A DNA stretch of 64,000 nucleotides from Candidatus Kapaibacterium sp. (GCA_025059875.1 JANXCT010000002.1:153180-217179); one strand, 5' to 3'. Numbered from the stretch's first letter, positions 15,456 to 51,251 are shown. Numbers and translations: made by a program. Notes: generated by a model not told the origin, from the letters alone.

Positions 15456-16725
15456 CGCGCTGGCTCACGCCTCTCTCTCGCACTCCCAGAGCCACGAGCA
15501 CCTGCTCAAGGATTGCGTCGTATGAAAACCGTGCAGCGTTCTCATCCGCAGCAGCTTGGCGCCACTGACAGCGCTGAGCTTCAGAAAGGGGTGCGATCGT
15601 CTGGACTGCCGTAGCAAGTGTCTCTTCAAAGCCGTGCGGCTCTTCCCAGTACCATCCCGTGCGACCTTCCTGGAGAAGGTGAAGGAGCGAAGCACGACGA
15701 GGTAACACAAGAGGAAGCCCTACTCCTAAGGACTCATTTGCTGAGATAGCCGGCTGCATCCACACACCGAGATCTGCTGCAGCCGCTAGCCGACGCGTCT
15801 GCTCCGGTGGCAAGAATGGATAGACCGCAAAGTGCTCGGGTATCGGCTGACGTTGGATCTGCTCCAGTAGCTCCCTCTGGTACCCATCCCCCAATCCACC
15901 AACCAGCACATACCGCACTGGAAGCCCGACTCGCTGCATCTTACCAACGGCAGCGATGATACGCTCAAGACCTTTTCGCGGGACAACTCGTGTGACAGTG
16001 AGGATGAGCACCTCTTCAGGCCTCACTCCAAGTTGCTCTCGAGTCTGCTGCCGCTCCAACGCGGAGAAGAAGAAGAGCTGAGGGTCATAGCCGAGCGCTA
16101 GCACTCGTGCCTTTGCCTCCAGAAGTTCTAGCTCCTCCCTATTAGCACAGCATTGCTGCAACCATTCCAGCGTTGCCGGCATATTGCAGACGAGTAACTC
16201 AGCACGGCGAATAGCACGACGATAGAACGGACGCTTCACGAGCTCAAACCCTCGATCCTGTAGCCAGCTAACAACTCGCGCCGACAATGAGTGCCGACGG
16301 CGGTACTCATGCAACTCGCTGAAGAAACACGCGATTGGCACCTGCCTCAGCTCTGCAGCCGTCAGAATTGGTACACCGAAGAGCTTTCCCACCCCCAACA
16401 GCAGAATCGCGTCAGGGCGCCACTCCACAACAGCAGAGACAACCCCACGGCTCAGCACTGCCGAGCGAAACCGAAAGGCAACCGGCAGACGCACGAGCTC
16501 GTAGCCATCCTCGCATATCCTGCCTACGGGATAAGGCCGGCGCCGTAGCCGCCGAGCACTGGAGGAGACTGCCGTGGAAGTAACTACCCGTACCGCAATC
16601 CCTTTACGGACCAAGGTCCGAGCAATCCAGACCTCCTGATACCCCACCTCGGGCATGAAGTGGCCACATACAACGGCAATTCGCATACCAAAAGCTCTCG
16701 GTAGCCTTTCGCTCCCGATGCTCAC
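15439..16725 (-). CDS. Glycosyltransferase family 4 (GT-B)
   Basis: GT-B fold motifs (MRIAVVCGHF..., C-terminal ...GVGLPLV...). Likely start at MRIAVV (16686). Confidence 0.65.
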   Translation of the reverse strand: MSIGSERLPRAFGMRIAVVCGHFMPEVGYQEVWIARTLVRKGIAVRVVTSTAVSSSARRLRRRPYPVGRICEDGYELVRLPVAFRFRSAVLSRGVVSAVVEWRPDAILLLGVGKLFGVPILTAAELRQVPIACFFSELHEYRRRHSLSARVVSWLQDRGFELVKRPFYRRAIRRAELLVCNMPATLEWLQQCCANREELELLEAKARVLALGYDPQLFFFSALERQQTREQLGVRPEEVLILTVTRVVPRKGLERIIAAVGKMQRVGLPVRYVLVGGLGDGYQRELLEQIQRQPIPEHFAVYPFLPPEQTRRLAAAADLGVWMQPAISANESLGVGLPLVLPRRASLLHLLQEGRTGWYWEEPHGFEETLATAVQTIAPLSEAQRCQWRQAAADENAARFSYDAILEQVLVALGVRERGVSQRDGKAA

Positions 16726-19352
16726 CGTTTCACGAAGAGCCGAGTCTCCACCCTCCCTCTGAGGTACACTCGGACTCCGTAGACTCCGGGTGCCCAGCCG
16801 TGGAGGTTAATGCCTGCCTTCTCCCTGCCCCTCAAGCTCTCGCGATAAACGCAGCGCCCGAGTGGATCCACAACCTCCACTGATACCACCCTCCCTCCCT
16901 CAACCAGCAGCCATACGACCTCCGTTGCAGGATTTGGCTCAAGACGCCACCGCAGAGAGCTTACCTCTTCTACGCTCGTGCGAACGAACCGATACGGATC
17001 CGAGATACTGGAGCAGCTATCCACCGTCACCTGCACGTAGTAGATGCCATCCCGCGGCGGGACGAACTCCCGGCCTGTCGCCCCAGGGATCGGTTGCTTG
17101 TTCTCATCCAGCCACTGGTTCCCTGTCAGCGCGCTCGAGACGAGCGTATCCCCGCGCTGTCCAATGACAGGCTTCGGAGGACGCGGGGCAACGGTTACAT
17201 GAACGCTATTGAGTGATCGCACCACGCCACATGCATTGCGAGCCTCCACCGTGTACCTTCCACCCTGCCAAACTCGAAGGACAGTATCCTGAGCCCTGGG
17301 AAGCGCGGTATCGTTACGGAACCACTGAAAGGCTACTCCAACCTCCCCAGCAATGCGGAGCTCTACAGTATCTCCACGGCAGAGCCGAACCCCACCTTCA
17401 GGCACAATCCTCGGCCTCCTCGGCAAGGGACGCATCGTCAGCGTAACGTTCCTCCGCCCTCGGACACTCCCACAGGCATTGTAGGCCTCCACACTGTACC
17501 GCCCCGATTGGGAAGCAGCATAGGCCGTCGCATCCTCTGCCACGACAATCGAATCACGCCACCACCGGTACCGAACCCCTGGCTGCGGCTGCAGAACGTA
17601 GAGCACAACCTGACGCCCTTCACAGAACACAGTATCGCCATCTATCTCGAGCTGCGGCTCCTGCGGACGTTGCTGAGCAGAGAGCAAGCGCCCATTATCG
17701 TTGCTGTAGGCAATCGGCTGTGAAGCTGAGACTCTGATCCGGTATTGCCCCCCAGGAGGCTGGAACGGAACGAAGACTCGCAGCCCTGTGTCTCGACGAG
17801 CCGCGACCGAATCGAGAACTAGTGGAACCTGGAAGCTTCCCCCTGCGTCGGAGAGCTCCACACGGAACATGTTGTTTGCACCAAACTCCCCGCCACGCAC
17901 ACGCCAGCGGACCAGAAGGCTGTCACCCGTACAGAGGACCGTGTCGGGCACTGCCTCCAACTCAAGGCTCAGGAGGTACCCCGATAGACGCACGAGGAGT
18001 CCATCGGCAAGTCCCGCCAGCGCCGACTGGTACGACGGAGGCTCGAGTGGGACATCGGTGCTCGTAGTACTCCCGACAAGCGCTATGTTCCCCGCGCTAT
18101 CTACGGCGATCCCCAGAGCAGCATCGCCAGCACCCCCTCCTAGTAGAAGACTCCACTGCGGCATACCCTGCCGATGGAGCTTCAGGAGGAAGCAGTCATC
18201 CCCTTCCGTAGAGCGTTGTCCTACGCCAATCTGTGGGAAATTCGAGCTGGCCGTACGTCCAGCAATGTAGAGGTTCCCCAACGCGTCCACAGCACAGCTT
18301 GTGGCGACGTCATTCTCCCCGCCGCCGAGGAAGGTCGCCCAGCGTAGCCCTCCGCTTGCTGAGAATTGGACCGCGAACCCATCCGCTCCCCCTCCAGCAT
18401 ACTGAAGCTGCCATATGGGAGTAATCGGCAAATTCTGGCTCCCTGTCATCCCTACGACGGTCACCCACCGCTCCGAGGTTACCGCGATCCCCAGGGCCCG
18501 GTCGCTCTCTGTCCCGCCATAGTAAGTAGACCAGCCCCACACGCCAAAGGGTCCAAACGAGGCAACGAAGGCATCTGTACCACCCCGCAGGACCTGCTGG
18601 AAAGCATTCCGCAGTGGGAAGTTCGAACTACTGGTCTCTCCGCAGATGTAGATGTTGCGGCGGTCATCCACACAGATCGCCGTGGCATAGTCAGGTCCGG
18701 AGCCACCGAAGTAGGTCGCCCACACCCGTGCCCCATCAGGTCGAAGCTGTAGCACAAACGCATCAGTATACCCAGCCAGTCGGTTCTGGACAGCGTTCGT
18801 GGTCACAGAAAAGTTCGTACTGCTTGTGTAGCCCACAACATTCAGCAGTCCCTGAGCATCCACCGCAACGGCTGTTGCCCCCTCCTCTCCGTTCCCACCA
18901 TAGTATGTCGCCCAAAGACGGACTCCATCAATGGAGAAGCACGCAATGAAGGCGTCGCTCCCTGCTGCTTTGGTGGACTGGAAAGCATTCGCAACGGGGA
19001 AGTCCGAACTCGCAGTCACTCCCACGACGTAAATCCTTCCTCCGCTGTCTACCGCAACCCCGAGGGCACGGTCATTGTCGCTGCCTCCTAGGTAGGTGGA
19101 CCACAAGAGAGAGCCGGAGGACGAGAACTTTGCAATAACGGCATCTTCGCGCCCCCGGTTCTGCCCCTGCCAGGCGTTGACGACCGGGAAGCTCACCCCC
19201 AAACTCCACCCAACTACCACGATTGAACCATCTGACGCTATGGCCGTTGCTCGCAGCTCATCCTGGGCTGGCGAGCCGAGATAGGTACCCCAATCAACCG
19301 TTGGCTGAGCAAAGGCCGGTAGGAAAAGGAGAAGCGTCCATGCTCTTTGCAT
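16722..19352 (-). CDS. SBBP (beta-propeller) repeat protein with C-terminal Por/T9SS sorting domain (T9SS cargo)
   Basis: More than 8 repeats of the SBBP pattern (YLGGSxxDxAxGIAVDxxGNIYVxGxTxSSxFP); Sec signal MQRAWTLLLFLPAFA. C-terminal ~80 aa (RLEPNPATEVVWL...GVYGVRVYL...) is a T9SS type-A CTD. Start set at MQRAW (19352); the track ORF extends into the tRNA. Confidence 0.7.
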   Translation of the reverse strand: MQRAWTLLLFLPAFAQPTVDWGTYLGSPAQDELRATAIASDGSIVVVGWSLGVSFPVVNAWQGQNRGREDAVIAKFSSSGSLLWSTYLGGSDNDRALGVAVDSGGRIYVVGVTASSDFPVANAFQSTKAAGSDAFIACFSIDGVRLWATYYGGNGEEGATAVAVDAQGLLNVVGYTSSTNFSVTTNAVQNRLAGYTDAFVLQLRPDGARVWATYFGGSGPDYATAICVDDRRNIYICGETSSSNFPLRNAFQQVLRGGTDAFVASFGPFGVWGWSTYYGGTESDRALGIAVTSERWVTVVGMTGSQNLPITPIWQLQYAGGGADGFAVQFSASGGLRWATFLGGGENDVATSCAVDALGNLYIAGRTASSNFPQIGVGQRSTEGDDCFLLKLHRQGMPQWSLLLGGGAGDAALGIAVDSAGNIALVGSTTSTDVPLEPPSYQSALAGLADGLLVRLSGYLLSLELEAVPDTVLCTGDSLLVRWRVRGGEFGANNMFRVELSDAGGSFQVPLVLDSVAARRDTGLRVFVPFQPPGGQYRIRVSASQPIAYSNDNGRLLSAQQRPQEPQLEIDGDTVFCEGRQVVLYVLQPQPGVRYRWWRDSIVVAEDATAYAASQSGRYSVEAYNACGSVRGRRNVTLTMRPLPRRPRIVPEGGVRLCRGDTVELRIAGEVGVAFQWFRNDTALPRAQDTVLRVWQGGRYTVEARNACGVVRSLNSVHVTVAPRPPKPVIGQRGDTLVSSALTGNQWLDENKQPIPGATGREFVPPRDGIYYVQVTVDSCSSISDPYRFVRTSVEEVSSLRWRLEPNPATEVVWLLVEGGRVVSVEVVDPLGRCVYRESLRGREKAGINLHGWAPGVYGVRVYLRGRVETRLFVKR

Positions 19353-19376
19353 CCGTTCCCCTTGCCACCGTTCTAG

Positions 19377-19450
19377 CGCGCCCGGCAGGACTCGAACCCG
19401 CAACCCCCAGATCCGAAGTCTGGTGCTCTCTCCAATTGAGCTACGGGCGC
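19377..19450 (-). tRNA. tRNA-Arg (anticodon TCG)
   Basis: Reverse complement folds as a cloverleaf: acceptor GCGCCCG/CGGGCGC, D-arm TAGCTCAATTGGAGAGAGC, anticodon loop CTTCGGA (U33, anticodon TCG), T-arm GGTTCGAGTCC. Confidence 0.8.
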
Positions 19451-19462
19451 AGCAGTGCAAAT

Positions 19463-34933: not shown

Positions 34934-37900
34934 ATGACAAAATGCGGGCTCTCCTGCGGAATACTTGCTGCAGCACTGTCCCTACAGGCAATTGCTGAAG
35001 AGTTACGGCTTCACTGGGAATGGCGCACCCCGCAGGAGGCTCTGTTGACGATCTCTGTTCCAATCCCACTCCTGCTCCAAGCACCTGAAGGTGTACGGCA
35101 AGCAGCTCCGAACTCCCGTTGGGCTTTTCCACTCCCTGACTGGTCCCTCTACGGATTTGCCATCCCTATGGAGCTACCTCTCCAGACTACACTCCGGAGC
35201 GACATCGTGCAGTGGGAGGAACTACCGCTGCCAGCACCACTCCAGCGACGTACGTGCCAAGAATGCTCTCCTGGAGAGCCGCTTGTAGCGCAGCTTGCGC
35301 CCATCGGCTCCTCAGGGGACCGACCCGTTGTAGCGCTGCGCCTCTTGCCGTATCACCCAGTAGAGCATGGCACTCGGCTCCGTGTCGCACGTCAGCTCCG
35401 GCTCCACTTGCGCCTTCCCCAGCCTTCGACAGTTCGTGAGTCCCTAGTTCTGCTGGATTTCAATCCCTCCCGATTAGCATCTCCCCTAGCAGACGTACCC
35501 CTTTCCACCTCAGAACAGCAACTCCCTACAGCTCCCGACGGCTTTCAATACAAGCTCATCGTTCGCCGCCAGGGACTCGTTCGAGTCACAGCTCGACAAC
35601 TGCTCGATGCTGGGCTACCGCTCGCAGCTATCCCTGTAGCGACGCTCCGCCTCTGGAACCGTGGACGTGAAATTCCGCTGTACGTTTACGATCGTAACAA
35701 CAATGGCTACCTCGATGACTATCCCCCAGACCCCGACTACATTGCCTTCTTTGGTGAGCCCAATCGGCTGAACTTCCGTAACCGTGACCGCGATATGTAC
35801 CTTGACCCCGAAACGGAAGAGAATGTCTATGCCCTCACTTGGGGAGGGGGAAATGGGAAGCGGATGGTTGAGGAGTCCGGCGATATCCGCATCCCTGACC
35901 CGCGACGAGCTATAGACCTACGCGGGAAGAGTTTCCGGAGTACTGTCATCGTAGAGCACAACCGAGTCGAGGAACGCTTCGGAGCCGTAGAGGCACAAGA
36001 CCGTGATCTCCTGCTCCCCAGCTTCCAAGGGGACCAACTCTTTTGGGCCCGAGTACCGGCGAACACTAGTGTGACCCTTCCCGTCCCCTTACCCGCACCG
36101 GCGCTCCTGGCAGAGGACTCTGTACGGGTAGAGGTGATGCTATGTGGTGCCATAGCACGTCCCTTGCCGTGCCCTATTCCTGAGCATACTGCGGAGATCT
36201 ACCTCAACCGTCGGCGAATTCTCCGAGCTTCTTGGTCGGGAGCCCGTCCGTTCACTGTTCAGTCCCCTCAACACCAGATTGCTCCCATCCCAGCTTCTGT
36301 TCTCGCTGAAGCCGACAGCAGCACCATTACGGTTGCCAACATCTTTGACTGTCCCCAAGCCAGCGACCGAATTCCCAGCTTCTACGTCAACTGGGTGCGG
36401 ATCGAGTATCCACGGCTCTACGTTGCGACGAACGATGAGCTCTGGTTCTGTACTCCTCCCGGCTCCCCTCCAGGGGTTTACACCTTCGCCCTCGAGGGCT
36501 TTCAAACACCAAATGTCCTGCTCTTCCGCGCCGGCATCTCGCGCATCCTCAACTACAGTCTCGAACGGGTCCGACTGCCTTGGGGGGCCGTGCGATACAC
36601 CATCCGCTTCCAGACTTACGTTGCCTCACCGGAAGAGCTCTTCTATGCTATCGCCGTAGACAGCGTTGCCGGTCCTGCGCGAATTGTCCGTGACCTTCCC
36701 TCCAGCCTATCCCATCCTGACAACGCCGCTGATTACATGATCATCACGCACAAAGGCCTCTGGGATCGCCGTCAGCCACAGGCGAATTCACCAGACCATC
36801 CCATTCAGCGACTCCTCCGCTTGCGGCAGCAGCAGGGGCTGCGCACGATGGTTGTGGACGTTGACGACATCTACGACGAGTTCAATGACGGTATCGCCTC
36901 ACGGGATGCCATTCACCGCTTCCTGCGATTTGCATGGTTGCGGTGGCGAGTCCCTCCGCGGTATATTGTGCTTGTTGGAAATGCCACAGCCATCCCACCG
37001 CAACTATGGCAGACACGCCGCTGGGGAATGACCCCTACGGACTACACGTACGGTTGCGTGGAAGGCACCTACCAAACTCCCACAGGCGCCCTGACGGACG
37101 ATCCGATCCCTGAAATGGCCGTTGGGCGTATTCCTGCAGAATCATTGGCTGATCTGGAAGCCGTAGTGGCAAAGCTGTGGGAGATGGAGGAAGGATACGC
37201 CACGACGTACTTCCAGCCCCGTGCCCTCTTGGTAGCTGGCATCAACGGCTTCATTCACCAGACAGAACTCTTGGCAACGCGGCTCCCCTTGGGACTGTCG
37301 CAGCGCCGCCTCTACGTCCAGCCTGGCACTCCGTACACTGGACATACAGCCGAGCTCCTCCAACTGTTTGCCGATGGAGCTGCTGTCGTCAACTTCCTCG
37401 GCCACGGTGGTGGGGGTATCTGGGAAGATGCCGGGCTACTGCAGGATGAAGATGTTGAGCTCTTCTCCAACCGTGGTCGCTACCCCATTGTCTCCAGTCT
37501 TACGTGCTTCACTGGCGCCTTTGAGCAGCAAGCGGGACGCCGCGGTCTACTGAGCAGCCTCGTTGTAACACCGGGACGTGGGGCCGTCGCCGCTTGGGGG
37601 AACTCCGGCTATGGTTGGCTGGAGAATAGCTTCTTGCTGTCGCTGGCGCTCCTGGAAGCTGTCACAGCCCCCACAGGACGTCTCCAACGTCTTGGAGATG
37701 CTTTCCGTGCTGGCAAAGCCCTCTATGCCGCCCGTGCCTATGGGCTACAGAACGAGATCGTGCTCTCTATGCTCCTGCAGGCAACCCTTATCGGCGATCC
37801 AGCCCAGCTCTTGCGGCTCCCAACGGACACAGTTGAGCTTCGGCTGAGCCGTACAGCCGCTACCGCTGGCGAGGTGCTCACAGTGGTCACCTCTCTGCCG

Positions 37901-39895
37901 TTTTCCTCAGGAAGCGCCCGAGTTCTCCTTGCCGATGAGTATGGCAACGACTTGCCCGGAGGCGAGCGGGTTATCTCCCTCAATGGCCCACGGCTTAGCT
38001 TCTCGGTAACAGTCCCTGCTAACTATATCGGCACGCGCCTCTCCATTCGCCTCTACGCAGTAGAGTCTAACCGGCAACGTGCGGTCATGGGAGGGGCACA
38101 CGTCAGCACAGGTGCTGTTATTCTGGGGGAAATCCAGACCTCACCTTCACCGCCAGTAGCCGGTCAGCCTCTGGCATTGCGCATTCCCATCCGCAGCCGT
38201 ACTGCTATCCAGAGTGTGACCGCCACTGTCAACATTGCCTTCCCTGACGGTACTACAAGCTCTTTGGGACCTATGCCCTGTCAACTCGTTAGCGCCGAGG
38301 TGTACCAGACCGAGCCTCCCATCTCGGCAGCGCTCATACGGGCTGGGGCAGAGATTAGGGCAGTGTTTACGGTCCTTCTGAGCACAGGGCAGAGCATTAG
38401 CTCTCCTATGGCCATCTTCTCGGTCCCAGGGATTGCGGACCCAGCGGTTGTCCAGCCCTTAGCAGGAGACAGCTTACGCACGGCCACCCCATGGCTGCGC
38501 TGTGTCCCAACAGCACAGGGAGCACATCTTCAGGTCCACCTCTACAACTGGCGGGAAACCCCTGCAGGCAACGTCTTGGTCCGTCTGTGGCGCTCCATGC
38601 CGAACGGTCCCCCGCAACTACTGGCTGAGCAGCGTGTGGACATCCCCGGCAACGGCAGCACGGACTGGCTCTTGCGTCCACCCAGAGCTCTACAGAAGGC
38701 CTATCTCCTCTGCGAAGTCGCTAGCGATAGTCTCTCTACCGGGGGTGATCGGTTAGCGAGCAACAATCGGGCTGGAGATAGTCTTCTACTGGGCTGCTTT
38801 GCACTCTTGCCGTCCGTTGGTACTACCGACAATGGCCTGCAGCACTCCCCTGTTGGGATTGAGGGGATAGCGACTGTTGCCGTCCTCCCTGCTCAAGCTC
38901 CGGCGGCTACCGCGCTCCTGTGGATTGAGACCCTCCCCTCCACTCGGACTGTACAGCCGAACGTCCATCTCGTACGTCTTGCCGATAGTTCTGCCGCTGT
39001 GGCAGTGACGGTCTCTTCTCCAACCACGGTCGTAGCAACATTGCAGCTGTGGTACCTGCCACAGGACACCGCGCTCGTCCATGGCCTACCGGCCATCTAC
39101 CGCAAACATAGCCGCTTAGACCTCTGGGAACGCCTCCCCACCCAGCAGATTGGTCCTGGCGTTGTGCAAGCTTCCGTAGTACTTCCTGGCATCTTCGCCG
39201 TTGCGACAAGCTCAGACCGGCGTCCTCCCCAAGTTCGGATAACAGCGGAAGGACGAGCTCTCCCGGCTCGGACTGTCCTCTCGGCGAATCCCCGAATCAG
39301 CATCGTTGGCATAGATGAAAATGGGGTCTCCACCGACACCTCTACCATCCGCTTGACACTGAACGGACAACCCGTACCCGTCCAGCAGCTCAGCATCTCA
39401 GACAGTGCCCAGACACCGACTGCCACCAGCATCAGCTACCGTCCTCAGCTCCAGAGTGGGACCCATATCTTGTGTGCCACGCTCGTAGACTGCAACGGTA
39501 ATCCCAGCGAACGCACCTGCATCCAGATGGAAGTCTCCACACAGCTCGACCTGCGGTTGCTAGGGACCTATCCGAATCCTTTCCGCGAGGAGATGTTCAT
39601 CGCCTACGAGCTGCTGGGGACAAGCAGCGTCGACGAGGTAGAGCTCCGACTATACACTGCTTCGGGACGCTGCATCCGCCGGATGGTCTTCCCAACGACT
39701 TCCCCCGCGGAGGCCTTCGGATTCTTACGCGGCGGGACCGGAATCCCGACAATGCCAGGATACCATGAAATCTGGTGGGACGGCATGGACAACGAAGGCC
39801 GTCCTGTAGCAAATGGGATCTACTTCTACCGACTCCGTGTCCGGTCGGGTGACACCATTGTGGAGCGACGCGGCAGTGTGGCGCGGGTTCGCTAA
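34934..39895 (+). CDS. porU: Type IX secretion system sortase PorU (gingipain-like C25 peptidase), unusually long (1653 aa)
   Basis: Signal peptide. Peptidase C25 core (ADYMIITHKGLW, VGNATAIPP, TDYTYGCVEG, catalytic His in NFLGHGGGGIWED, Cys in SLTCFTGAF). Multiple Ig/FN3-like beta domains. C-terminal FlgD-Ig/T9SS-like domain (GTYPNPFREE...GIYFYRLRV). Immediately followed by porV. Confidence 0.75.
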   Translation: MTKCGLSCGILAAALSLQAIAEELRLHWEWRTPQEALLTISVPIPLLLQAPEGVRQAAPNSRWAFPLPDWSLYGFAIPMELPLQTTLRSDIVQWEELPLPAPLQRRTCQECSPGEPLVAQLAPIGSSGDRPVVALRLLPYHPVEHGTRLRVARQLRLHLRLPQPSTVRESLVLLDFNPSRLASPLADVPLSTSEQQLPTAPDGFQYKLIVRRQGLVRVTARQLLDAGLPLAAIPVATLRLWNRGREIPLYVYDRNNNGYLDDYPPDPDYIAFFGEPNRLNFRNRDRDMYLDPETEENVYALTWGGGNGKRMVEESGDIRIPDPRRAIDLRGKSFRSTVIVEHNRVEERFGAVEAQDRDLLLPSFQGDQLFWARVPANTSVTLPVPLPAPALLAEDSVRVEVMLCGAIARPLPCPIPEHTAEIYLNRRRILRASWSGARPFTVQSPQHQIAPIPASVLAEADSSTITVANIFDCPQASDRIPSFYVNWVRIEYPRLYVATNDELWFCTPPGSPPGVYTFALEGFQTPNVLLFRAGISRILNYSLERVRLPWGAVRYTIRFQTYVASPEELFYAIAVDSVAGPARIVRDLPSSLSHPDNAADYMIITHKGLWDRRQPQANSPDHPIQRLLRLRQQQGLRTMVVDVDDIYDEFNDGIASRDAIHRFLRFAWLRWRVPPRYIVLVGNATAIPPQLWQTRRWGMTPTDYTYGCVEGTYQTPTGALTDDPIPEMAVGRIPAESLADLEAVVAKLWEMEEGYATTYFQPRALLVAGINGFIHQTELLATRLPLGLSQRRLYVQPGTPYTGHTAELLQLFADGAAVVNFLGHGGGGIWEDAGLLQDEDVELFSNRGRYPIVSSLTCFTGAFEQQAGRRGLLSSLVVTPGRGAVAAWGNSGYGWLENSFLLSLALLEAVTAPTGRLQRLGDAFRAGKALYAARAYGLQNEIVLSMLLQATLIGDPAQLLRLPTDTVELRLSRTAATAGEVLTVVTSLPFSSGSARVLLADEYGNDLPGGERVISLNGPRLSFSVTVPANYIGTRLSIRLYAVESNRQRAVMGGAHVSTGAVILGEIQTSPSPPVAGQPLALRIPIRSRTAIQSVTATVNIAFPDGTTSSLGPMPCQLVSAEVYQTEPPISAALIRAGAEIRAVFTVLLSTGQSISSPMAIFSVPGIADPAVVQPLAGDSLRTATPWLRCVPTAQGAHLQVHLYNWRETPAGNVLVRLWRSMPNGPPQLLAEQRVDIPGNGSTDWLLRPPRALQKAYLLCEVASDSLSTGGDRLASNNRAGDSLLLGCFALLPSVGTTDNGLQHSPVGIEGIATVAVLPAQAPAATALLWIETLPSTRTVQPNVHLVRLADSSAAVAVTVSSPTTVVATLQLWYLPQDTALVHGLPAIYRKHSRLDLWERLPTQQIGPGVVQASVVLPGIFAVATSSDRRPPQVRITAEGRALPARTVLSANPRISIVGIDENGVSTDTSTIRLTLNGQPVPVQQLSISDSAQTPTATSISYRPQLQSGTHILCATLVDCNGNPSERTCIQMEVSTQLDLRLLGTYPNPFREEMFIAYELLGTSSVDEVELRLYTASGRCIRRMVFPTTSPAEAFGFLRGGTGIPTMPGYHEIWWDGMDNEGRPVANGIYFYRLRVRSGDTIVERRGSVARVR

Positions 39896-40919
39896 GTGTA
39901 TCGTAGTCCTCGGGGCCAGCATCCAACTATGGGCCGAAGAGGAGCGGTATGCCGCCGCCTTCCTCGAAATCCCCTTGGGAGCCCGGGCCCTCGGCCTCGG
40001 TACAGCCTTCACTGCTATTGCAGACGATGCCTGGGGATTCTACTGGAATCCAGCAGGCACAGCACTGACACCCCCAACAGTGCTCGTAGCCGGGATGTAC
40101 AGCTCGCAGTACGGGGCAATTGGATCACCACTGGCCCACTTCTTCCACACTGGACTGCTCCTGCCTATCTCCGGACTACGGGTTGGGGTCCACTGGGTCC
40201 GGTTCACCGCCCCTGACTTACGGGCGTATCCCGACCTGACGCGTGTCCTCTCTCCCCAGGAGCGGGAGGAGCTTGTACGGCGTGCGAGTGCTGGGGACTT
40301 CATCCCGAATGCGGATGAGGCCATCTGGATCGTGCTCGCCCGACTCCTCGTGGTACCAGTGGACTTCGGTTGGCTACGCTTCCAAGTGCCGGTCGAGTTC
40401 CCCGTAGGACTGAACATTAAGCTCCTCCACGAGCAGATTGCCGAACACCGTGCCTCGGGCATCGGGGTGGACGTTGGCGCTATGCTGCGCGTCAACCTCA
40501 AGGACATTGCCTTTGACGAGCGCTGGCCACGCCTCTCGCTTGGGGTCAATGTGCGAGACCTTGGTGGAACACGGCTGCTTTGGACCACCCAGCGACCGCA
40601 CCGTATCCCTCCCTCCGTCTCCTGGGGAGTGGCATTGACACAGCCCTTGGAGGCATGGAAACTAGAACTGACGCTGGGGTATAGCCGTGACGAGCGCTAC
40701 GGAGGGCATAACAACTACGGCATTGAAGTCCTCTATCGCCGTAGTTTTGCCCTCCGGGCCGGCACGTACCGCTCAGTGCTGACCCTTGGGGCCGGGGTTG
40801 ACGCCGGCGTTCTGACAGCTGACTACGGCTTCCTGGCAGACTCAGACACACAACTGGGGAATGTCCACCGCCTGGGCATATGTCTCCGTTTAGAGCCTCT
40901 GCTGAAGCGATTGCAATGA
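39876..40919 (+). CDS. porV: Type IX secretion system outer-membrane protein PorV (LptO)
   Basis: PorV family signature right after the signal peptide (FLEIPLGARALGLGTAFTAIADDAWGFYWNPAG). Beta-barrel amphipathic strands to the end. Start placed at GTG 39876 (20-nt overlap with porU); the in-frame ATG at 39813 would overlap porU by 83 nt. Confidence 0.75.
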   Translation: MWRGFAKCIVVLGASIQLWAEEERYAAAFLEIPLGARALGLGTAFTAIADDAWGFYWNPAGTALTPPTVLVAGMYSSQYGAIGSPLAHFFHTGLLLPISGLRVGVHWVRFTAPDLRAYPDLTRVLSPQEREELVRRASAGDFIPNADEAIWIVLARLLVVPVDFGWLRFQVPVEFPVGLNIKLLHEQIAEHRASGIGVDVGAMLRVNLKDIAFDERWPRLSLGVNVRDLGGTRLLWTTQRPHRIPPSVSWGVALTQPLEAWKLELTLGYSRDERYGGHNNYGIEVLYRRSFALRAGTYRSVLTLGAGVDAGVLTADYGFLADSDTQLGNVHRLGICLRLEPLLKRLQ

Positions 40920-46077: not shown

Positions 46078-46562
46078 CCCACCGCAACACTACAGTCTCA
46101 CCAGACACCGCAAAAATAGGCAGTGCAGCTGCCCTTACCCTTGCTAGCTGCTTCAAGCTCTGCATCAACTACACCCTCGCCCACGAGGGTCACTCTCCGA
46201 GGCTCGAAGAGGATACCTTCGTTTCTCAGCATGGAGCGCGCTTGCCGTGAACAGGAGCTTATTCTCTGGAACACCGTCCTCCCCCGTCCCTTCCTGCTCG
46301 CTCAGAGCTGCTCTACCCCTACTGAGCAAATCCTCCGCCCACCGATACCCCCTTTACACTCAGAAGGGGCCAGGCCTCCCGTGCTTCTCAGCAACGCCTC
46401 ACACCGTAGCAGAATCCTGCAGCTCCTCCTCCACAGTTCAGCACATACGAAGCCCTTAGCTCGCCAGCAGCCCCCGTCCCCGCGTGCATCCCTGATTTCA
46501 AGGGATTGCCGTAGCTTCCCATCTCCCAATTCCAGCGCCGCCATATAGCACCCACACGCCCT

Positions 46563-46985
46563 TCAGGGAAGCCGACGCCGCAGAAACTGCAGCAGTTCTG
46601 AATACAGATCCTCAACGGCCTTGGGAAGCTCCTCACCCATCCCCCACTGGAGCCGATAGCGCCCGCTAGCGGTACGGAGCTCTAAGAAGGCGGTCATATT
46701 GCCAGCTCCTTGTAGCCGTACCCCTTGGCGCTCTAGCACTACCAGCCGCCGGAAGAAGGGTTGGAGACTATCAGCTGCGACGCGACCGAGTTCCTCCATC
46801 CCTTCAGGCCGTCCAGGCATTTGGCTCCAGCGGAGCACCAATCCATCGGAGCGCACAATGTAACCAGAGTAGAGTCCTGTGAATCCTCCACCTTGACCGA
46901 CGAGAATCTCCCCTTCCACAGGCAGATCCACAGCCGAAGAACGGCAGCCCATCACAAAGCCTGCAAAGAGCACAAGCAGTGTCAT
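46563..46985 (-). CDS. Small hypothetical lipoprotein
   Basis: Signal and lipobox (MTLLVLFAGFVMGC) at the internal Met of track ORF 46563-47213. ~141 aa. Terminal gene of a co-directional block. Confidence 0.35.
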   Translation of the reverse strand: MTLLVLFAGFVMGCRSSAVDLPVEGEILVGQGGGFTGLYSGYIVRSDGLVLRWSQMPGRPEGMEELGRVAADSLQPFFRRLVVLERQGVRLQGAGNMTAFLELRTASGRYRLQWGMGEELPKAVEDLYSELLQFLRRRLP

Positions 46986-46995
46986 TGCACTTCCT

Positions 46996-48054
46996 TCACA
47001 TGTCCGTTGACAGCCGGAGCCGAACAATGCGTCCATTGGCCGCATCGGCAATGTAGATGGTCCTGTTGTACACTGCCACTCCCGATGGAGCTCGAAGTCG
47101 AAATACCCCCTCCCCACGATACCCGCGAACGAGCATCCCCGACGGCGAGAGCACGTAGAGGCTATCGGTCTCCACATCCACAACGTATACCGATCCCGCA
47201 GCGTCGAAGGCAACCCCTTCAGGCGCAGTGAACCGCCCAGGCTGCAGTACTGTGGGGGTCTGTCGCGTAGGGTCGAACTTCTGCGTCCATCCAGCCCCTT
47301 CGCCAGTAACGTACGTCAGCCACTGCACGCGGTACTGCATCGCCTCGCCTCGCTGACAGAAGACTAACTCCCGCCCGTTAGCAGAGACGGCTAATCCGCT
47401 GAGCTGTTCGATAGCGTTGAGGGCAATCCCCACCGGTCGAAGTACAGGGATCGGCGAACGCAGCCGGTCATCTGCCCCGATGTGCAGTACGGCCTCGTCT
47501 GGGTCCACGGGAGAGCTGTTGTACGGGCCTGTCCGGGCAACGAGGTAGCTGTTGTCTGGCAAGACAGCGATGCCACTGAAGCGTCGCTGTGGCCGCTCCG
47601 GTTCTGCATAAGCCACTAAGACCCGTGCTCGCTGGATGTCGTGTCGCGCTTCGCGGAGCTTGATCCGAAAGACCGCTCCAATTGTCACCCGACCCCTCGG
47701 CAGGACTGTGTCGAGCTCCCCGCAGACGAGCAGGTCAAAATGCCCATCCTGTGCCAACGCTACAGGTCGTCGGATAGGCGGAGAGACCCCCACAAGACGC
47801 CCTGCCAAGTCCAACATCACCACCCGATCGTTGTCCGTATCGGCCACGTAGATGAAAGGTTCGCGTCCAACCAGAACATCTGACGGGTTACGGAAGCCCA
47901 TCCACGCAGGGTCCAAGGGGACATAGACTGTGTCTCCTATTCTGGCGGTATCCAGGGGCGGCACTGTCGGCAACGAAGGGGGGTCTACGAGACACCCCCA
48001 GTTCCCAACAGACACCATCACCACCAAGGGCCACCACCGTAGCAACCGTGTCAT
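46996..48054 (-). CDS. NHL-repeat (beta-propeller) lipoprotein
   Basis: Lipobox-like VSVGNWGC. Repeated NHL-type segments (PSDVLVGREPFIYVADTDNDRVVMLD; PEGVAFDAAGSVYVVDVETDSLYVL; APSGVAVYNRTIYIADAANGRIVRL). Confidence 0.55.
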   Translation of the reverse strand: MTRLLRWWPLVVMVSVGNWGCLVDPPSLPTVPPLDTARIGDTVYVPLDPAWMGFRNPSDVLVGREPFIYVADTDNDRVVMLDLAGRLVGVSPPIRRPVALAQDGHFDLLVCGELDTVLPRGRVTIGAVFRIKLREARHDIQRARVLVAYAEPERPQRRFSGIAVLPDNSYLVARTGPYNSSPVDPDEAVLHIGADDRLRSPIPVLRPVGIALNAIEQLSGLAVSANGRELVFCQRGEAMQYRVQWLTYVTGEGAGWTQKFDPTRQTPTVLQPGRFTAPEGVAFDAAGSVYVVDVETDSLYVLSPSGMLVRGYRGEGVFRLRAPSGVAVYNRTIYIADAANGRIVRLRLSTDM

Positions 48055-49058
48055 GGCAAGCGGAAAGGCTCGATACTCAGCCCCAACCGATAGACCAAGC
48101 CAAGCGGGGCCCGCGTGGCGAGAGCATAATCAAGCTGCCACATGACTGGAGGCACTGGTAACCGAAACCCAATCCCAGCTCCCCACCACTCTGCCGCTCG
48201 AGCTCGCAGCCCCGCACGCACCATGAGCTCGGCAGGGAAGGCGGCCGAGAAGCGCACTACGTACTCGCTGGCAACGGCATAACTCTCGACGTCGTCACTG
48301 GGATGCTCCAGCGAGAGCATCCATGTCCAGCGCTGGTCCTCTCGCTGGATGAGCTCTCCGGCCACCCCGATCCGAAAGACCGTTGGTGGAGCAAACTCAC
48401 GGAAATCGGCTGAATGGTTACCCACAGGCTCTACCGCAGCAATGCTCCCACGGGCTCGTAGAGGGAGCCCGAACTGCGAGACCGCAACTGCGAGCCGCAG
48501 GCTCCCAATTCCTGTCCAGTACAGCGTCCCAGCGTCCCAGACGAGTCCTTCCAACGTAGCCTCTGCCCACTGTTCCCGAACATACCGCACGGTAACGCCA
48601 GCGGCAAACTGGTCCGTGAACCGATGTGCGTAGGCAATCCCAGCATTCCAGTGGCCGAAGCGGAACTGTCGCCCTGTGCCGTAAGGACGGTATTCAGTCG
48701 TTTCCTCAATCGGTGGCAATCCAAGTGCAGAAGCCGTCAGCACAACCATCCCCGCCGACCACGGACGGAAGCCCACCGCTAAGGAGGAATGGATGATGTC
48801 TGCAACGAAGCGCTGAAATACTACGCCTACGGCATACGGAGCTGCGAGCTCCACGGCCGTCGCCGGGTTAGGGCTGACGTTGATTCCATCAGGCAGTGCC
48901 GTCGTTGCTCCCACCAGCGCTGCACTCCGAGCACTCCCCAGCAGTCGCAGGGCCACAGCCGTGGAGATCCCGACACGCTCTTCACCAAAGCGCGGGAAGA
49001 CCTGCCCTACTGCGATGGCAGCTAGTAACGATGTCAAGCAGCACGCCCAGAACCACAT
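48051..49058 (-). CDS. PorV/PorQ-family outer-membrane beta-barrel protein (putative PorQ-like)
   Basis: Signal peptide, then a motif resembling the PorV/PorQ N-terminal signature (LRLLGSARSAALVGATTALPDGINVSPNPA). Alternating amphipathic beta-strands throughout. Compare with the bona fide PorV at 39876. Confidence 0.45.
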   Translation of the reverse strand: MWFWACCLTSLLAAIAVGQVFPRFGEERVGISTAVALRLLGSARSAALVGATTALPDGINVSPNPATAVELAAPYAVGVVFQRFVADIIHSSLAVGFRPWSAGMVVLTASALGLPPIEETTEYRPYGTGRQFRFGHWNAGIAYAHRFTDQFAAGVTVRYVREQWAEATLEGLVWDAGTLYWTGIGSLRLAVAVSQFGLPLRARGSIAAVEPVGNHSADFREFAPPTVFRIGVAGELIQREDQRWTWMLSLEHPSDDVESYAVASEYVVRFSAAFPAELMVRAGLRARAAEWWGAGIGFRLPVPPVMWQLDYALATRAPLGLVYRLGLSIEPFRLP

Positions 49059-49822
49059 CAGTGCCGCGCTACCCCTCCGTCAACATTGATGGTCTGGCCT
49101 GTGATAATTCCAGAAGCCGGCATCGCCAAAAAGACCACGACGTTGGCAATATCCTCCGGCTCGTCAGCTCGATGGACCGCCTGCGTTGGCAGGATATGCT
49201 GGAGGATCGTCTGCGAAAGTGGAGCGGCATTAGGCCGCTGCGTTGCTGTCAATCCGACGGTAATAGCGTTGACCGTAATCCCATACCGGCCTACCTCCGC
49301 TGCCAGTGAGCGGACGAAGCCGATGATGCCCATCTTGGCCGTTACGTAGTGGACCAAATACGGCGTCCCCAGCCAGACCGTGTCAGAAGAGAGGGCAATG
49401 ATGCGCCCAAAGCCATGCTCCTTCATCAAGGGCAGCACAGCCTTGACGGTGAGGAAGAGGCTATCGAGCGTCACCCCCAGCATTCGCTTCCACTGCTGGA
49501 AGGTCAGTAGCTCAAAGGGCTCCTCCTCGTAAATGCCGACGTTGTGGACCAAGATATCCACCCTCCCCCAGCGAGAGCGGATTGTCTCCACGACTCGTTC
49601 AACGTCCGATGGCTGCGTGAGGTCTGCCTGAACGGTGAGGACCTCTCCCCCTATGCGGTGGACTGCTTCGGCAGTCTCGCTCGCGTCTGCAATATCGGCA
49701 ATAGCGATACGTGCTCCTTCTTCGGCCAGGCGCTCACAAAAGGCACGTCCGTTTCCGATCGCCGCTCCCGTAACTAACGCAACGCGTCCCTGGAGCCCCT
49801 GCTCAAAGCGGTGGATTTGCAT
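49058..49822 (-). CDS. SDR-family oxidoreductase (3-oxoacyl reductase-like; candidate 3-ketosphinganine-type reductase by context)
   Basis: TGAAIGNG Rossmann motif, NVG..., catalytic S...Y...K (YVTAKMG). 254 aa. Its start overlaps the alpha-oxoamine synthase stop. Confidence 0.75.
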
Positions 49823-51251
49823 CCGCTCGTTGTACTTGTTGGCCTGCAGCCGACCGTCGGTCTACACCAGCAGACGCAATCCCCTCTGCGATGCGCTCAC
49901 GCGCCTCAGGTGTCAGCAGACCGAGTTCCTTCCCCACGCGTTCGAACACTTCTAAGATGCGATCCAGGTGCTCGTCCTCGTGGGTTGCCATGTAGCTTGT
50001 CCGCATCATGCTCATCGTGGGAGGGACACCCGGAGGGATGAATGTGTTGACGTAGACGCCAGCATCGAAGAGCTTACGCCAGAAGAGCAGCGCTGTCTGG
50101 ACGTCCCCGACGATGACTGGTACGATAGCTGTCTGCCCGTCAAGGGTATGGAATCCTAGCTCCTTGAACCCCTGCCGCATCTTGTTGGCATTCCGGATGA
50201 GCTTGTCCACCAACTCGGGCTGCTCCTCTAAGATCTCCAATGCAGCTAATGCCGCAGCACATGAAGCCGGCGTCGGGCTAGCACTGAAGATGAGAGCCGC
50301 TGAGTGATGCTTCAGGTAGTTGATGACCCGCTCCGGACCCGCCACGAAGCCGCCGAGCGAAGCAAACGTCTTGGAGAACGTGCCCATCGTCAGGTCAGTC
50401 TGCTCCGTCAGCCCAAACATGCTCGCCGTCCCTCGTCCCCCCACGCCAATGACCCCAATAGCGTGGGCATCATCGATGAGGACACGAGCACCGTAGCGGT
50501 GAGCAATTTCTACAAGCCGTGGCAAATCCACGATTTCTCCCGTGACAGAGAAGACCCCGTCGGAGACCACTAACTTCGGAGCCGACTCCGGAAGGCCCGC
50601 TAAGATGCGCTCTAGATCCTCCATGTCGTTGTGGCGGTAGCGGATGAACTCCGCCCCCATGCCCCTGGCAATGAGAGCACCGGTGACGATAGAGGCATGG
50701 TTCTCGCGATCGCTGATGACGTAGTCCCCCTTCTGCACTAAGCCAGCAATTGTTCCCAGCGCTGTCTGGAAACCAGTGCTGAAGAGCAGGACTGCCTCGT
50801 AACCCAGGAAGCGCGCGAGTCGTTCTTCCAGCTCTACGTGGAGGTCCAGCGTGCCCGTTAGGTACCGCGATCCTGAGCAGCCGGTGCCATACTTACGGAT
50901 GGCCGCCATCGCGGCTTCCTTGACCTTGGGGTGAGTGGTCAATCCCAGGTAGTTGTTCGAACCCGCCATGATGACTTTGCGGCCCCCAACCGTCACTACA
51001 GGACCCTCGTTCTCCTGAATCGGGTGGAAGTAGGGATATAAGCCCATAGCTTTGACTTCGTCCGCACGCGTAAAGGCGTAGCACCGTTCGAACAGGTCCA
51101 CTTCTTCACCGTCTCTGTTGTAGTACTGTCCCGCGCAAGACGGGCACAAATATCTGAAAAAGTCAGCGGAGGCATCGCACGGGCCCAATTCACCGCTTGG
51201 AGACAGCAGCAGAGGTACGGAGGAAGAAGCGGAGGAGGAGGTCACGGCCAC
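49803..51251 (-). CDS. Alpha-oxoamine synthase family PLP enzyme (serine palmitoyltransferase / Cfa / KBL-like)
   Basis: GSNNYLGLT motif; PLP region ([10 protein letters not shown]...[13 protein letters not shown] with Schiff-base Lys). ~400-aa conserved core. The track ORF has a 60-70-aa Cys-containing N-terminal extension, so the true start may be internal. Followed by the SDR. Confidence 0.7.

Follow-up and report, generated by a model that had tools for sequence, protein, structure and literature searches.

We have analysed a 64,000-nt stretch of DNA from Candidatus Kapaibacterium sp. (GCA_025059875.1, JANXCT010000002.1:153180-217179; the whole stretch is called the window below), a Kapabacteria metagenome-assembled genome of the Chlorobiota/Bacteroidota group, in which five co-directional genes of the minus strand encode a serine palmitoyltransferase (SPT)-like alpha-oxoamine synthase (AOS), a classical short-chain dehydrogenase/reductase (SDR), an outer-membrane barrel of the PorV/PorQ superfamily, an NHL-repeat lipoprotein and a small lipoprotein. 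The explanation that we favour, with moderate confidence, is that the first two genes act as a pair in the formation of sphinganine, that they share a transcript with a barrel-lipoprotein module to which they are unrelated, and that the juxtaposition of both is specific to one lineage. This explanation is based on the gene identities, folds, junctions and conservation statistics, from which we infer the enzyme activities, the co-transcription from a DNA box located upstream, the formation of a complex by barrel and lipoprotein, and the absence of a functional tie between the two modules.

Gene order of the block and its distribution

An earlier note on this DNA had read the block as a dedicated route delivering a sphingoid or sulfono-lipid to the outer membrane or to the surface machinery of type IX secretion (T9SS), a claim that failed the co-occurrence test. 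Approximately 170 related loci were compared in all. On the SPT side, 80 related genome loci were collected, all of them from Kapabacteria, Ignavibacteria and relatives, and the barrel followed in 4 out of 65 SPT loci; these four (L001-L004), all closest relatives of the window, were the only ones in which the barrel, NHL and small lipoprotein genes followed the SPT-SDR pair. On the barrel side, a metagenome scan with a 17-sequence barrel profile provided another 80 loci. The order MPG-AOS-SDR-barrel-NHL-small was repeated in the 7 loci whose barrel was at least 54% identical to that of the window. Among the 73 loci with a barrel of 30-39% identity, AOS, SDR and the small lipoprotein were each found in none, a TonB-dependent receptor (TBDR) was encoded directly upstream of the barrel in 46 out of 56, an NHL protein directly downstream in 48 out of 57, and a 500-aa lipoprotein (LP500) was present in 21 out of 25.

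The five-gene arrangement was thus seen only in one Kapabacteria clade, with 13 loci counting the window. In the 12 orthologous loci with enough flanking sequence, protein identity to the window was 84-98% for AOS, 87-98% for SDR, 54-96% for the barrel, 73-95% for NHL and 47-90% for the small lipoprotein, and the contig of 'Chlorobiota bacterium DT_Bin_21' was 92-94% identical to the window at the DNA level. The flanks of the four closest SPT loci are syntenic too (MPG, TilS, Dus, CCG, SixA and SBP), and the same extended synteny was found around two barrel homologues of the same clade (P0008 and P0010). Because these flanking housekeeping genes are equally syntenic, the conservation of gene order within the clade carries little information.

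All five ORFs are real genes, and their tight packing, as described in the earlier note, was borne out when the ORFs and junctions were read from the sequence; likewise, the identities proposed there for the five products hold. The SDR gene starts within the end of AOS, with an overlap of 20 nt; TGATG contains both the SDR stop and the barrel start (1-nt overlap at 49058), and ATGA both the barrel stop and the NHL start (4-nt overlap). The small lipoprotein gene has its ATG (46985) after a gap of 10 nt from the NHL stop (46996), with an AGGAAG inside, and the small protein starting at 46985 has 140 rather than 216 aa. Same-strand overlaps and abutting genes occur, however, all over the window, and clearly unrelated pairs are among them: Dus/TilS (13 nt), 15439-16725/16722-19460 (4 nt) and 41497-42225/42222-43439 (4 nt). 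Since neighbouring genes overlap as a rule in this genome, the overlaps say little about function. In the interval between SDR and barrel we found no terminator-like or promoter-like site, scans for sigma-70 promoters and terminators being not above shuffled expectation, and therefore the five genes probably make up one transcript. A single transcript in a compact genome is, in turn, weak evidence for shared function.

We propose that two independently conserved modules became neighbours, probably within one transcript, in a single Kapabacteria lineage. In the first module, SPT would join serine and an acyl thioester to produce 3-ketosphinganine, and the adjacent cytoplasmic SDR would reduce the 3-keto group to give sphinganine, in an order of steps like that of eukaryotes and Bacteroides, the N-acyltransferase for ceramide being presumably encoded elsewhere. 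In the second, the barrel, the NHL propeller lipoprotein and the clade-specific small lipoprotein would most likely assemble into a complex at the outer membrane, with the barrel holding or docking the NHL lipoprotein, by analogy with PorV-PorU, PorQ-PorZ and especially BamG-BamH. Because the barrel-NHL pair usually ends a four-gene cassette, the ancestral job of this module would be tied to a TonB-dependent outer-membrane transporter and not to lipid synthesis.

Table 1. Features of the block, in positions of the window, with the basis of each assignment.
Feature	Position	Strand	Basis or remark
Promoter-like DNA box GACTTTTTCAGATATTTG	51147-51164	-	Conserved across orthologous loci; 46 nt 5' of the start codon
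SPT-like alpha-oxoamine synthase, 432 aa, GTG start	49803-51101 (ORF 49803-51251)	-	Pfam, NCBIfam and PDB matches
Classical SDR, 254 aa, putative 3-ketosphinganine reductase	49058-49822	-	Pfam, motifs, SPT linkage
PorV/PorQ-superfamily 14-strand outer-membrane barrel (FadL fold), 335 aa, signal peptide	48051-49058	-	
NHL-repeat beta-propeller lipoprotein, 352 aa; its pairing with the barrel is conserved	46996-48054	-	Pfam NHL 6.6e-11; lipobox Cys after signal peptide
Small lipoprotein, 140 aa, begins MTLLVLFAGFVMGC	46563-46985 (ORF 46563-47213)	-	Lipobox; clade-restricted

The synthase, its start codon and the adjacent reductase

The synthase matched the Pfam family Aminotran_1_2 (4e-58), and its best NCBIfam model was SerpalmtaseCFB (NF047600, the Bacteroidota SPT equivalog) with 478.6 bits, the next family scoring 93 bits lower (385.8). 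When it was compared, as the earlier note had advised, to characterised SPT, cysteate acyltransferase and KBL/BioF enzymes, the Bacteroidota SPT was the best match by far: the Sphingobacterium multivorum enzyme (3a2b/8guh) aligned over the full length with 387 bits (E 7e-115), against 252-269 bits for the Sphingomonas SPTs, 199-277 bits for the KBL/BioF range (BioF/KBL 277, KBL 248-259, BioF 199) and 223 and 189 bits for the solved cysteate acyltransferases 28eh (CFAT) and 7u7h (SulA), respectively. Among the characterised enzymes, ALAS and CqsA were likewise more distant than SPT. The motifs GSNNYLGLT and GTFSKTF, the latter with the pyridoxal 5'-phosphate (PLP) lysine, were seen as the earlier note had named them, and the catalytic motifs NHASI (HAS), DDAHA (DDAH) and GTFSK (FSK) align to those of the S. 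multivorum SPT. These features fit a fold-type I PLP enzyme, with a His stacking on PLP, an Asp/His pair and the Schiff-base Lys. The synthase would condense L-serine with a long-chain acyl thioester.

The neighbourhoods of the orthologues point in the same direction. In Ignavibacteria, proteins 69-76% identical to the synthase of the window are encoded between an NDUFA9/NAD-epimerase-type reductase and a 373-aa GNAT acyltransferase, which are the enzyme classes of the Caulobacter ceramide set spt/cerR/bcerS (10.1101/2023.11.08.566215). Because the Ignavibacteria orthologues have these ceramide-type neighbours, a sphingolipid role is supported for the whole SPT orthologous group. Neither a GNAT nor an epimerase-type reductase was found in the 64-kb window when it was searched by tblastn with the Ignavibacteria proteins. 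In a second Ignavibacteria group of 12 loci, SPT-GNAT is followed by a protein of approximately 308 aa which, by eye, resembles a branched-chain amino-acid aminotransferase (IlvE) and could supply iso-branched acyl primers.

The SDR gene lies directly 3' of SPT in 29 out of 80 loci (25 out of 73 with at least 900 nt downstream), with 66-98% identity, and this arrangement and the GNAT/epimerase arrangement are mutually exclusive among SPT loci. As the SDR thus replaces the CerR and GNAT neighbours, an order in which the ketone is reduced first and acylation follows is implied. The protein matched Pfam adh_short_C2 (5e-58), its translation contains the cofactor motif TGAAIGNG and the catalytic motif YVTAK, and its nearest PDB entries were the FabG-like NAD(H)-type enzymes phenylethanol dehydrogenase, pyridoxal 4-dehydrogenase and FabG. 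A Bacteroides SDR, BT_0972, is a proven 3-ketosphinganine reductase (PMC9278070), and neither its gene nor those of the ketocapnine reductases are clustered with their synthases (PMC9278070, PMC11211663). As an arrangement, the conserved spt-SDR operon would therefore be new to a modest degree, and it is a good candidate for a route in which reduction comes first. After SPT-SDR, 17 Kapabacteria loci have the gene of a secreted T9SS cargo protein (1261 aa) that combines PNGase F C-terminal, LamG-like and T9SS sorting domains, and in those same loci a DUF520/YajQ gene precedes SPT.

The 'unusual Cys-containing N-terminal extension' attributed to the synthase by the earlier note proved not to be protein but an artefact of ORF calling. 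In an alignment of seven orthologous upstream regions, coding-type conservation started at a conserved GTG (51101), which corresponds to residue 51 of the ORF and, in the relatives, has a GGAGG-like ribosome-binding site before it, while 5' of this codon the indels were not multiples of three. Moreover, the upstream glycosylase gene, with its stop at 51190, reaches at its 3' end into the first 62 nt of the long ORF. The onset of conservation at the GTG, the non-triplet indels 5' of it and the overlap with the glycosylase gene together define a synthase of 432 aa (49803-51101). Judged by this alignment, the 'extension' is the in-frame translation of a 5' untranslated or promoter region, and the SPT gene model should drop its 50 codons.

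The sole conserved stretch 5' of the GTG was the box GACTTTTTCAGATATTTG, which read in frame gives DFFRYLC. It was identical or near-identical in the seven orthologous loci, in which the surrounding intergenic DNA is variable, and most of the Kapabacteria loci that carry the SDR have a related core, CGATATTTGC, 45-60 nt before the start of SPT. When tested as a repeated motif, the box was unique in the window, and the region had no match in Rfam. It resembles the -7 promoter element of Bacteroidota, TAnnTTTG, and by this resemblance it is probably the promoter (-7-like) or an operator of the transcription unit.

The barrel, its cassette and the small lipoprotein

The description of the barrel as PorV/PorQ-like in the earlier note was sustained at the level of the family and not beyond it. 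In hidden Markov model searches, the protein marginally reached the cutoff of the PorV/PorQ family NF033709 (91.1 bits, cutoff 90) and was far off the T9SS equivalogs PorV (16 bits, cutoff 250) and PorQ (27 bits, cutoff 220), as befits a paralogous subfamily. All 108 aligned members of the barrel family matched NF033709. The profile made from them retrieved PorV (6h3i_F) from PDB with an E value of 3.9e-34; the family profile was needed for this, since a phmmer search of PDB sequences with the barrel alone gave only noise. A word-indexed search, with 10 homologues, had suggested a tiny family, a notion overturned by an exhaustive profile search that yielded 1920 representatives at E<=1e-3, of which 834 reached <=1e-10 and 96 <=1e-30, and among which the SPT-linked clade of the window makes up one 50%-identity cluster.

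The structural model predicted from the 108-sequence alignment (pLDDT 93.9) was a 14-strand FadL-type barrel with the N-terminal segment inside, and its best structural match was PorV; models from the single sequence and from 11 sequences (pLDDT 52) were discarded. A putative N-P-A hatch motif is kept, with N64, P65 and A66 invariant. At 34934-40919 on the plus strand, the window contains a second PorV/PorQ-family barrel (368 aa; PorV_fam 85 bits, PorV2 51 bits), encoded directly after the gene of a 1653-aa PorU-like protein (T9SS PorU model 168 bits, 'PorU2' model 151 bits), and the presence of two PorV-family barrels within 10 kb indicates that such paralogues are frequent in this genome. 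T9SS cargo is also encoded in the window, since the product of 16722-19460 on the minus strand is an SBBP/beta-propeller protein of 912 aa that carries a T9SS type A sorting domain.

Beyond the clade, three more distant barrel homologues (P0011, P0014 and P0065) exemplify a conserved cassette in which a lipoprotein of approximately 500 aa, a receptor of approximately 950 aa (CarboxypepD_reg/Plug/TonB-dependent receptor), the barrel and NHL follow each other, and in the loci L083, L085 and L087 NHL also lies directly downstream of a barrel homologue. The four-gene cassette was seen in L083, L085 and L087, in eight metagenome loci and in around 40 more; it is widespread and apparently undescribed, its 500-aa lipoprotein has no known domain, and T9SS cargo genes flank it in L087. 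A barrel subgroup of nine loci (34-36% identity) is found without the TBDR and NHL neighbours, one of its members following gpsA, and probably represents one more paralogous subfamily whose role differs. No homologue of LP500, of the TBDR or of PorD was found in a search of the 64-kb window.

The lipoboxes of the two lipoproteins of the window are NWGC (NHL; LSGC in a relative) and VMGC (small lipoprotein). The small lipoprotein had no Pfam or NCBIfam match. It was encoded in 12 out of 12 clade loci with enough flank and in 0 out of 73 distant barrel loci, and a search of 5.8 billion proteins gave 11 clusters, confined to the clade. All relatives examined have a gene for a Crp/FNR-type regulator (cNMP_binding and HTH_Crp_2) in convergent orientation immediately beyond the gene of the small lipoprotein. 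This regulator gene is missing from the window, and positions 46206-46562 are occupied instead by approximately 360 nt without similarity to the 94%-identical relative L001.

Alternative explanations and relation to known systems

The block could also be understood as an spt operon into which the barrel and the two lipoproteins were captured to export, insert or use a sphingoid lipid, either for outer-membrane delivery or as an anchor or environment of T9SS surface proteins. The translationally coupled junctions, the persistence of the arrangement in the 13 clade loci, window included, and the FadL/PorV fold with its invariant putative hatch motif would agree with this, as would the fact that the TBDR partner was lost and a new lipoprotein gained exactly in the clade that joined the spt operon; besides, the movement of sphingolipids to the outer membrane is known only as far as the Caulobacter LptF2G2C2 (10.64898/2026.04.12.717747). 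We nevertheless consider it improbable, given the lack of co-occurrence beyond one shallow clade from either side (0/73 and 4/65), the approximately 25 other SPT-SDR Kapabacteria loci without an adjacent barrel, the equally syntenic housekeeping flanks and the ubiquity of overlaps in this genome, to which must be added that PorV-family paralogues are frequent, with the second one only 7 kb away, raising the chance of an accidental adjacency. Distinctly improbable, in our opinion, is the idea that the barrel-propeller pair was detached from its TBDR cassette, put into the spt operon, joined by the new small lipoprotein and repurposed to carry sphingoid bases or ceramides into or across the outer membrane or to couple the supply of sphingolipids to the display of surface proteins. 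If this were true, sphingolipid transport in bacteria would have its first component at the outer membrane, but the comparative evidence gives the idea no support. An attachment-type complex of the T9SS, in which barrel, NHL and small lipoprotein would anchor or process cargo independently of the lipid genes, like PorQ with the beta-propeller protein PorZ, is unlikely. Its appeal lies in the PorV/PorQ superfamily membership and PorV as best structural match, in a beta-propeller partner, in the cargo genes flanking the L087 cassette and in the PorU2-like, PorV2-like and Por_Secre_tail proteins of the window. The PorV and PorQ equivalog scores (16 vs 250 and 27 vs 220 bits) are nonetheless very low, the NHL partner is a lipoprotein with no match to a T9SS C-terminal domain in Pfam or NCBIfam, and the dominant conserved neighbour is the TBDR (46/56), which is not a T9SS component; the PorU2-like/PorV2-like pair is a different locus, and SprA, PorU and PorZ are not among the conserved neighbours of the barrel.

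Two further alternatives concern the enzymes. Capnine synthesis uses CFAT/SulA enzymes of the AOS family together with SDR-type ketocapnine reductases (PMC11211663, PMC9304779), and the organism belongs to the Bacteroidota/Chlorobiota group, which has T9SS, so the pair might make a capnine-type sulfonolipid, the synthase being a cysteate acyltransferase and the SDR a 3-ketocapnine reductase. This is very unlikely: the score against the S. multivorum SPT was 387 bits, compared to 223 and 189 bits against the cysteate acyltransferases, the best NCBIfam model is SPT-CFB, the Ignavibacteria orthologues have ceramide-type partner genes, and no cysteate synthase turned up in the window in a search that was not exhaustive. 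Least credible of all is that the synthase serves threonine catabolism or biotin synthesis as a housekeeping KBL or BioF, next to an unrelated or threonine-dehydrogenase-like SDR. The NCBIfam scores for KBL (367-386 bits) and BioF (370 bits) and the unreached SPT cutoff speak for it, and kbl-tdh operons exist, but SPT models and structures are ahead by approximately 90-190 bits and the context of the Ignavibacteria orthologues is ceramide-like. Furthermore, SDR-type threonine dehydrogenases are extended, GalE-like SDRs of approximately 310-320 aa, whereas the SDR of the window is a 254-aa classical FabG-type enzyme.

It should be considered that several observations weigh against a sphinganine-forming pair joined to an unrelated module. 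The 478.6 bits of the synthase are below the NF047600 equivalog cutoff of 640, which makes it SPT-like and places it outside the curated Bacteroidota equivalog. The SDR is no more than a putative 3-ketosphinganine reductase, from its SPT linkage, and the Asp at the end of its beta-2 strand (IAIAD) suggests NAD(H) instead of the NADPH of known 3-ketosphinganine reductases. Within the clade, the junction is kept down to 54% barrel identity, with a stop/start overlap or gaps of at most 35 nt, and co-expression, and hence a shared physiology such as outer-membrane remodelling, is plausible. FadL-family barrels conduct hydrophobic molecules. In the SPT-linked clade, the barrel-NHL pair lost its usual TBDR and LP500 neighbours and gained a new lipoprotein, as a functional change would look. 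Finally, SPT lies near PorD and a barrel of the PorV family in 9 Ignavibacteria loci as well, a second case and an unrelated one. Approximately 1-6 kb downstream of SPT, the CerR-like, SPT and GNAT genes are followed there by an opposite-strand PorD (NF052317, 220 bits), then by a 284-aa PorV-family-like barrel that stays below cutoff (62 bits) and by a protein of 664 aa whose N-terminus is a helix-hairpin-helix of the ComEA type. Such a neighbourhood of SPT and T9SS-type outer-membrane genes may be a case independent of the arrangement in the window. As support for a lipid route it was judged insufficient: it belongs to one synteny group only, its barrel is related only remotely to the clade profile (E 2e-4 to 0.03), and in the second Ignavibacteria group other neighbours come after SPT-GNAT.

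Should the explanation of two juxtaposed modules be true, spt-SDR would be a genomic-context candidate for a bacterial 3-ketosphinganine reductase distinct from both the unclustered Bacteroides enzyme and the CerR route. The barrel-NHL pair would then belong to a widespread, uncharacterised four-gene outer-membrane cassette, adding to the emerging theme of FadL/PorV-fold barrels as docking subunits of larger outer-membrane machines.

Compared to the Bacteroidota SPTs (S. multivorum 3a2b/8guh and the Bacteroides BT_0870 type), the synthase is likewise an AOS of the soluble homodimer type that keeps the PLP Lys, His and Asp motifs. It differs from them in scoring below the equivalog cutoff (478.6 vs 640) and in its origin from Kapabacteria, in an uncharacterised genus. 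The enzyme classes of the Caulobacter spt/bcerS/cerR genes flank the Ignavibacteria SPT orthologues and not that of the window; unlike the Caulobacter ceramide genes, the window and the other SDR-type Kapabacteria loci are without both nearby and have a cytoplasmic classical SDR in that position. Like BT_0972, yeast Tsc10 and human FVT1, the SDR of the window has the SDR fold, a glycine-rich cofactor motif and Y-x-x-x-K, and presumably catalyses the step after SPT. In contrast to BT_0972, SDRs of this type are operonic with SPT in 29 out of 80 loci and their nearest solved relatives are FabG-like NAD(H) enzymes, and, whereas the known 3-ketosphinganine reductases use NADPH, the acidic residue after beta-2 suggests NADH for the SDR of the window.

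On the side of the barrel, the Bacteroidota BAM complex has in BamG a barrel of the FadL fold, to which the surface lipoprotein BamH is bound by its N-terminal region (PMC12611786). The barrel of the window has no significant sequence-family membership with BamG or the hydrophobic-compound channels FadL/TodX, only 13 of the 108 family members weakly matching the BamG model, and, unlike BamG, it has no BamA or BamD context. With regard to the T9SS PorV of Flavobacterium johnsoniae (6h3i_F/8gl6_F), it is 13-18% identical, approximately 30-65 residues shorter and scores 16 bits against the cutoff of 250; next to it, instead of SprA or PorU, the genes of an NHL lipoprotein and of a TonB-dependent receptor are conserved.

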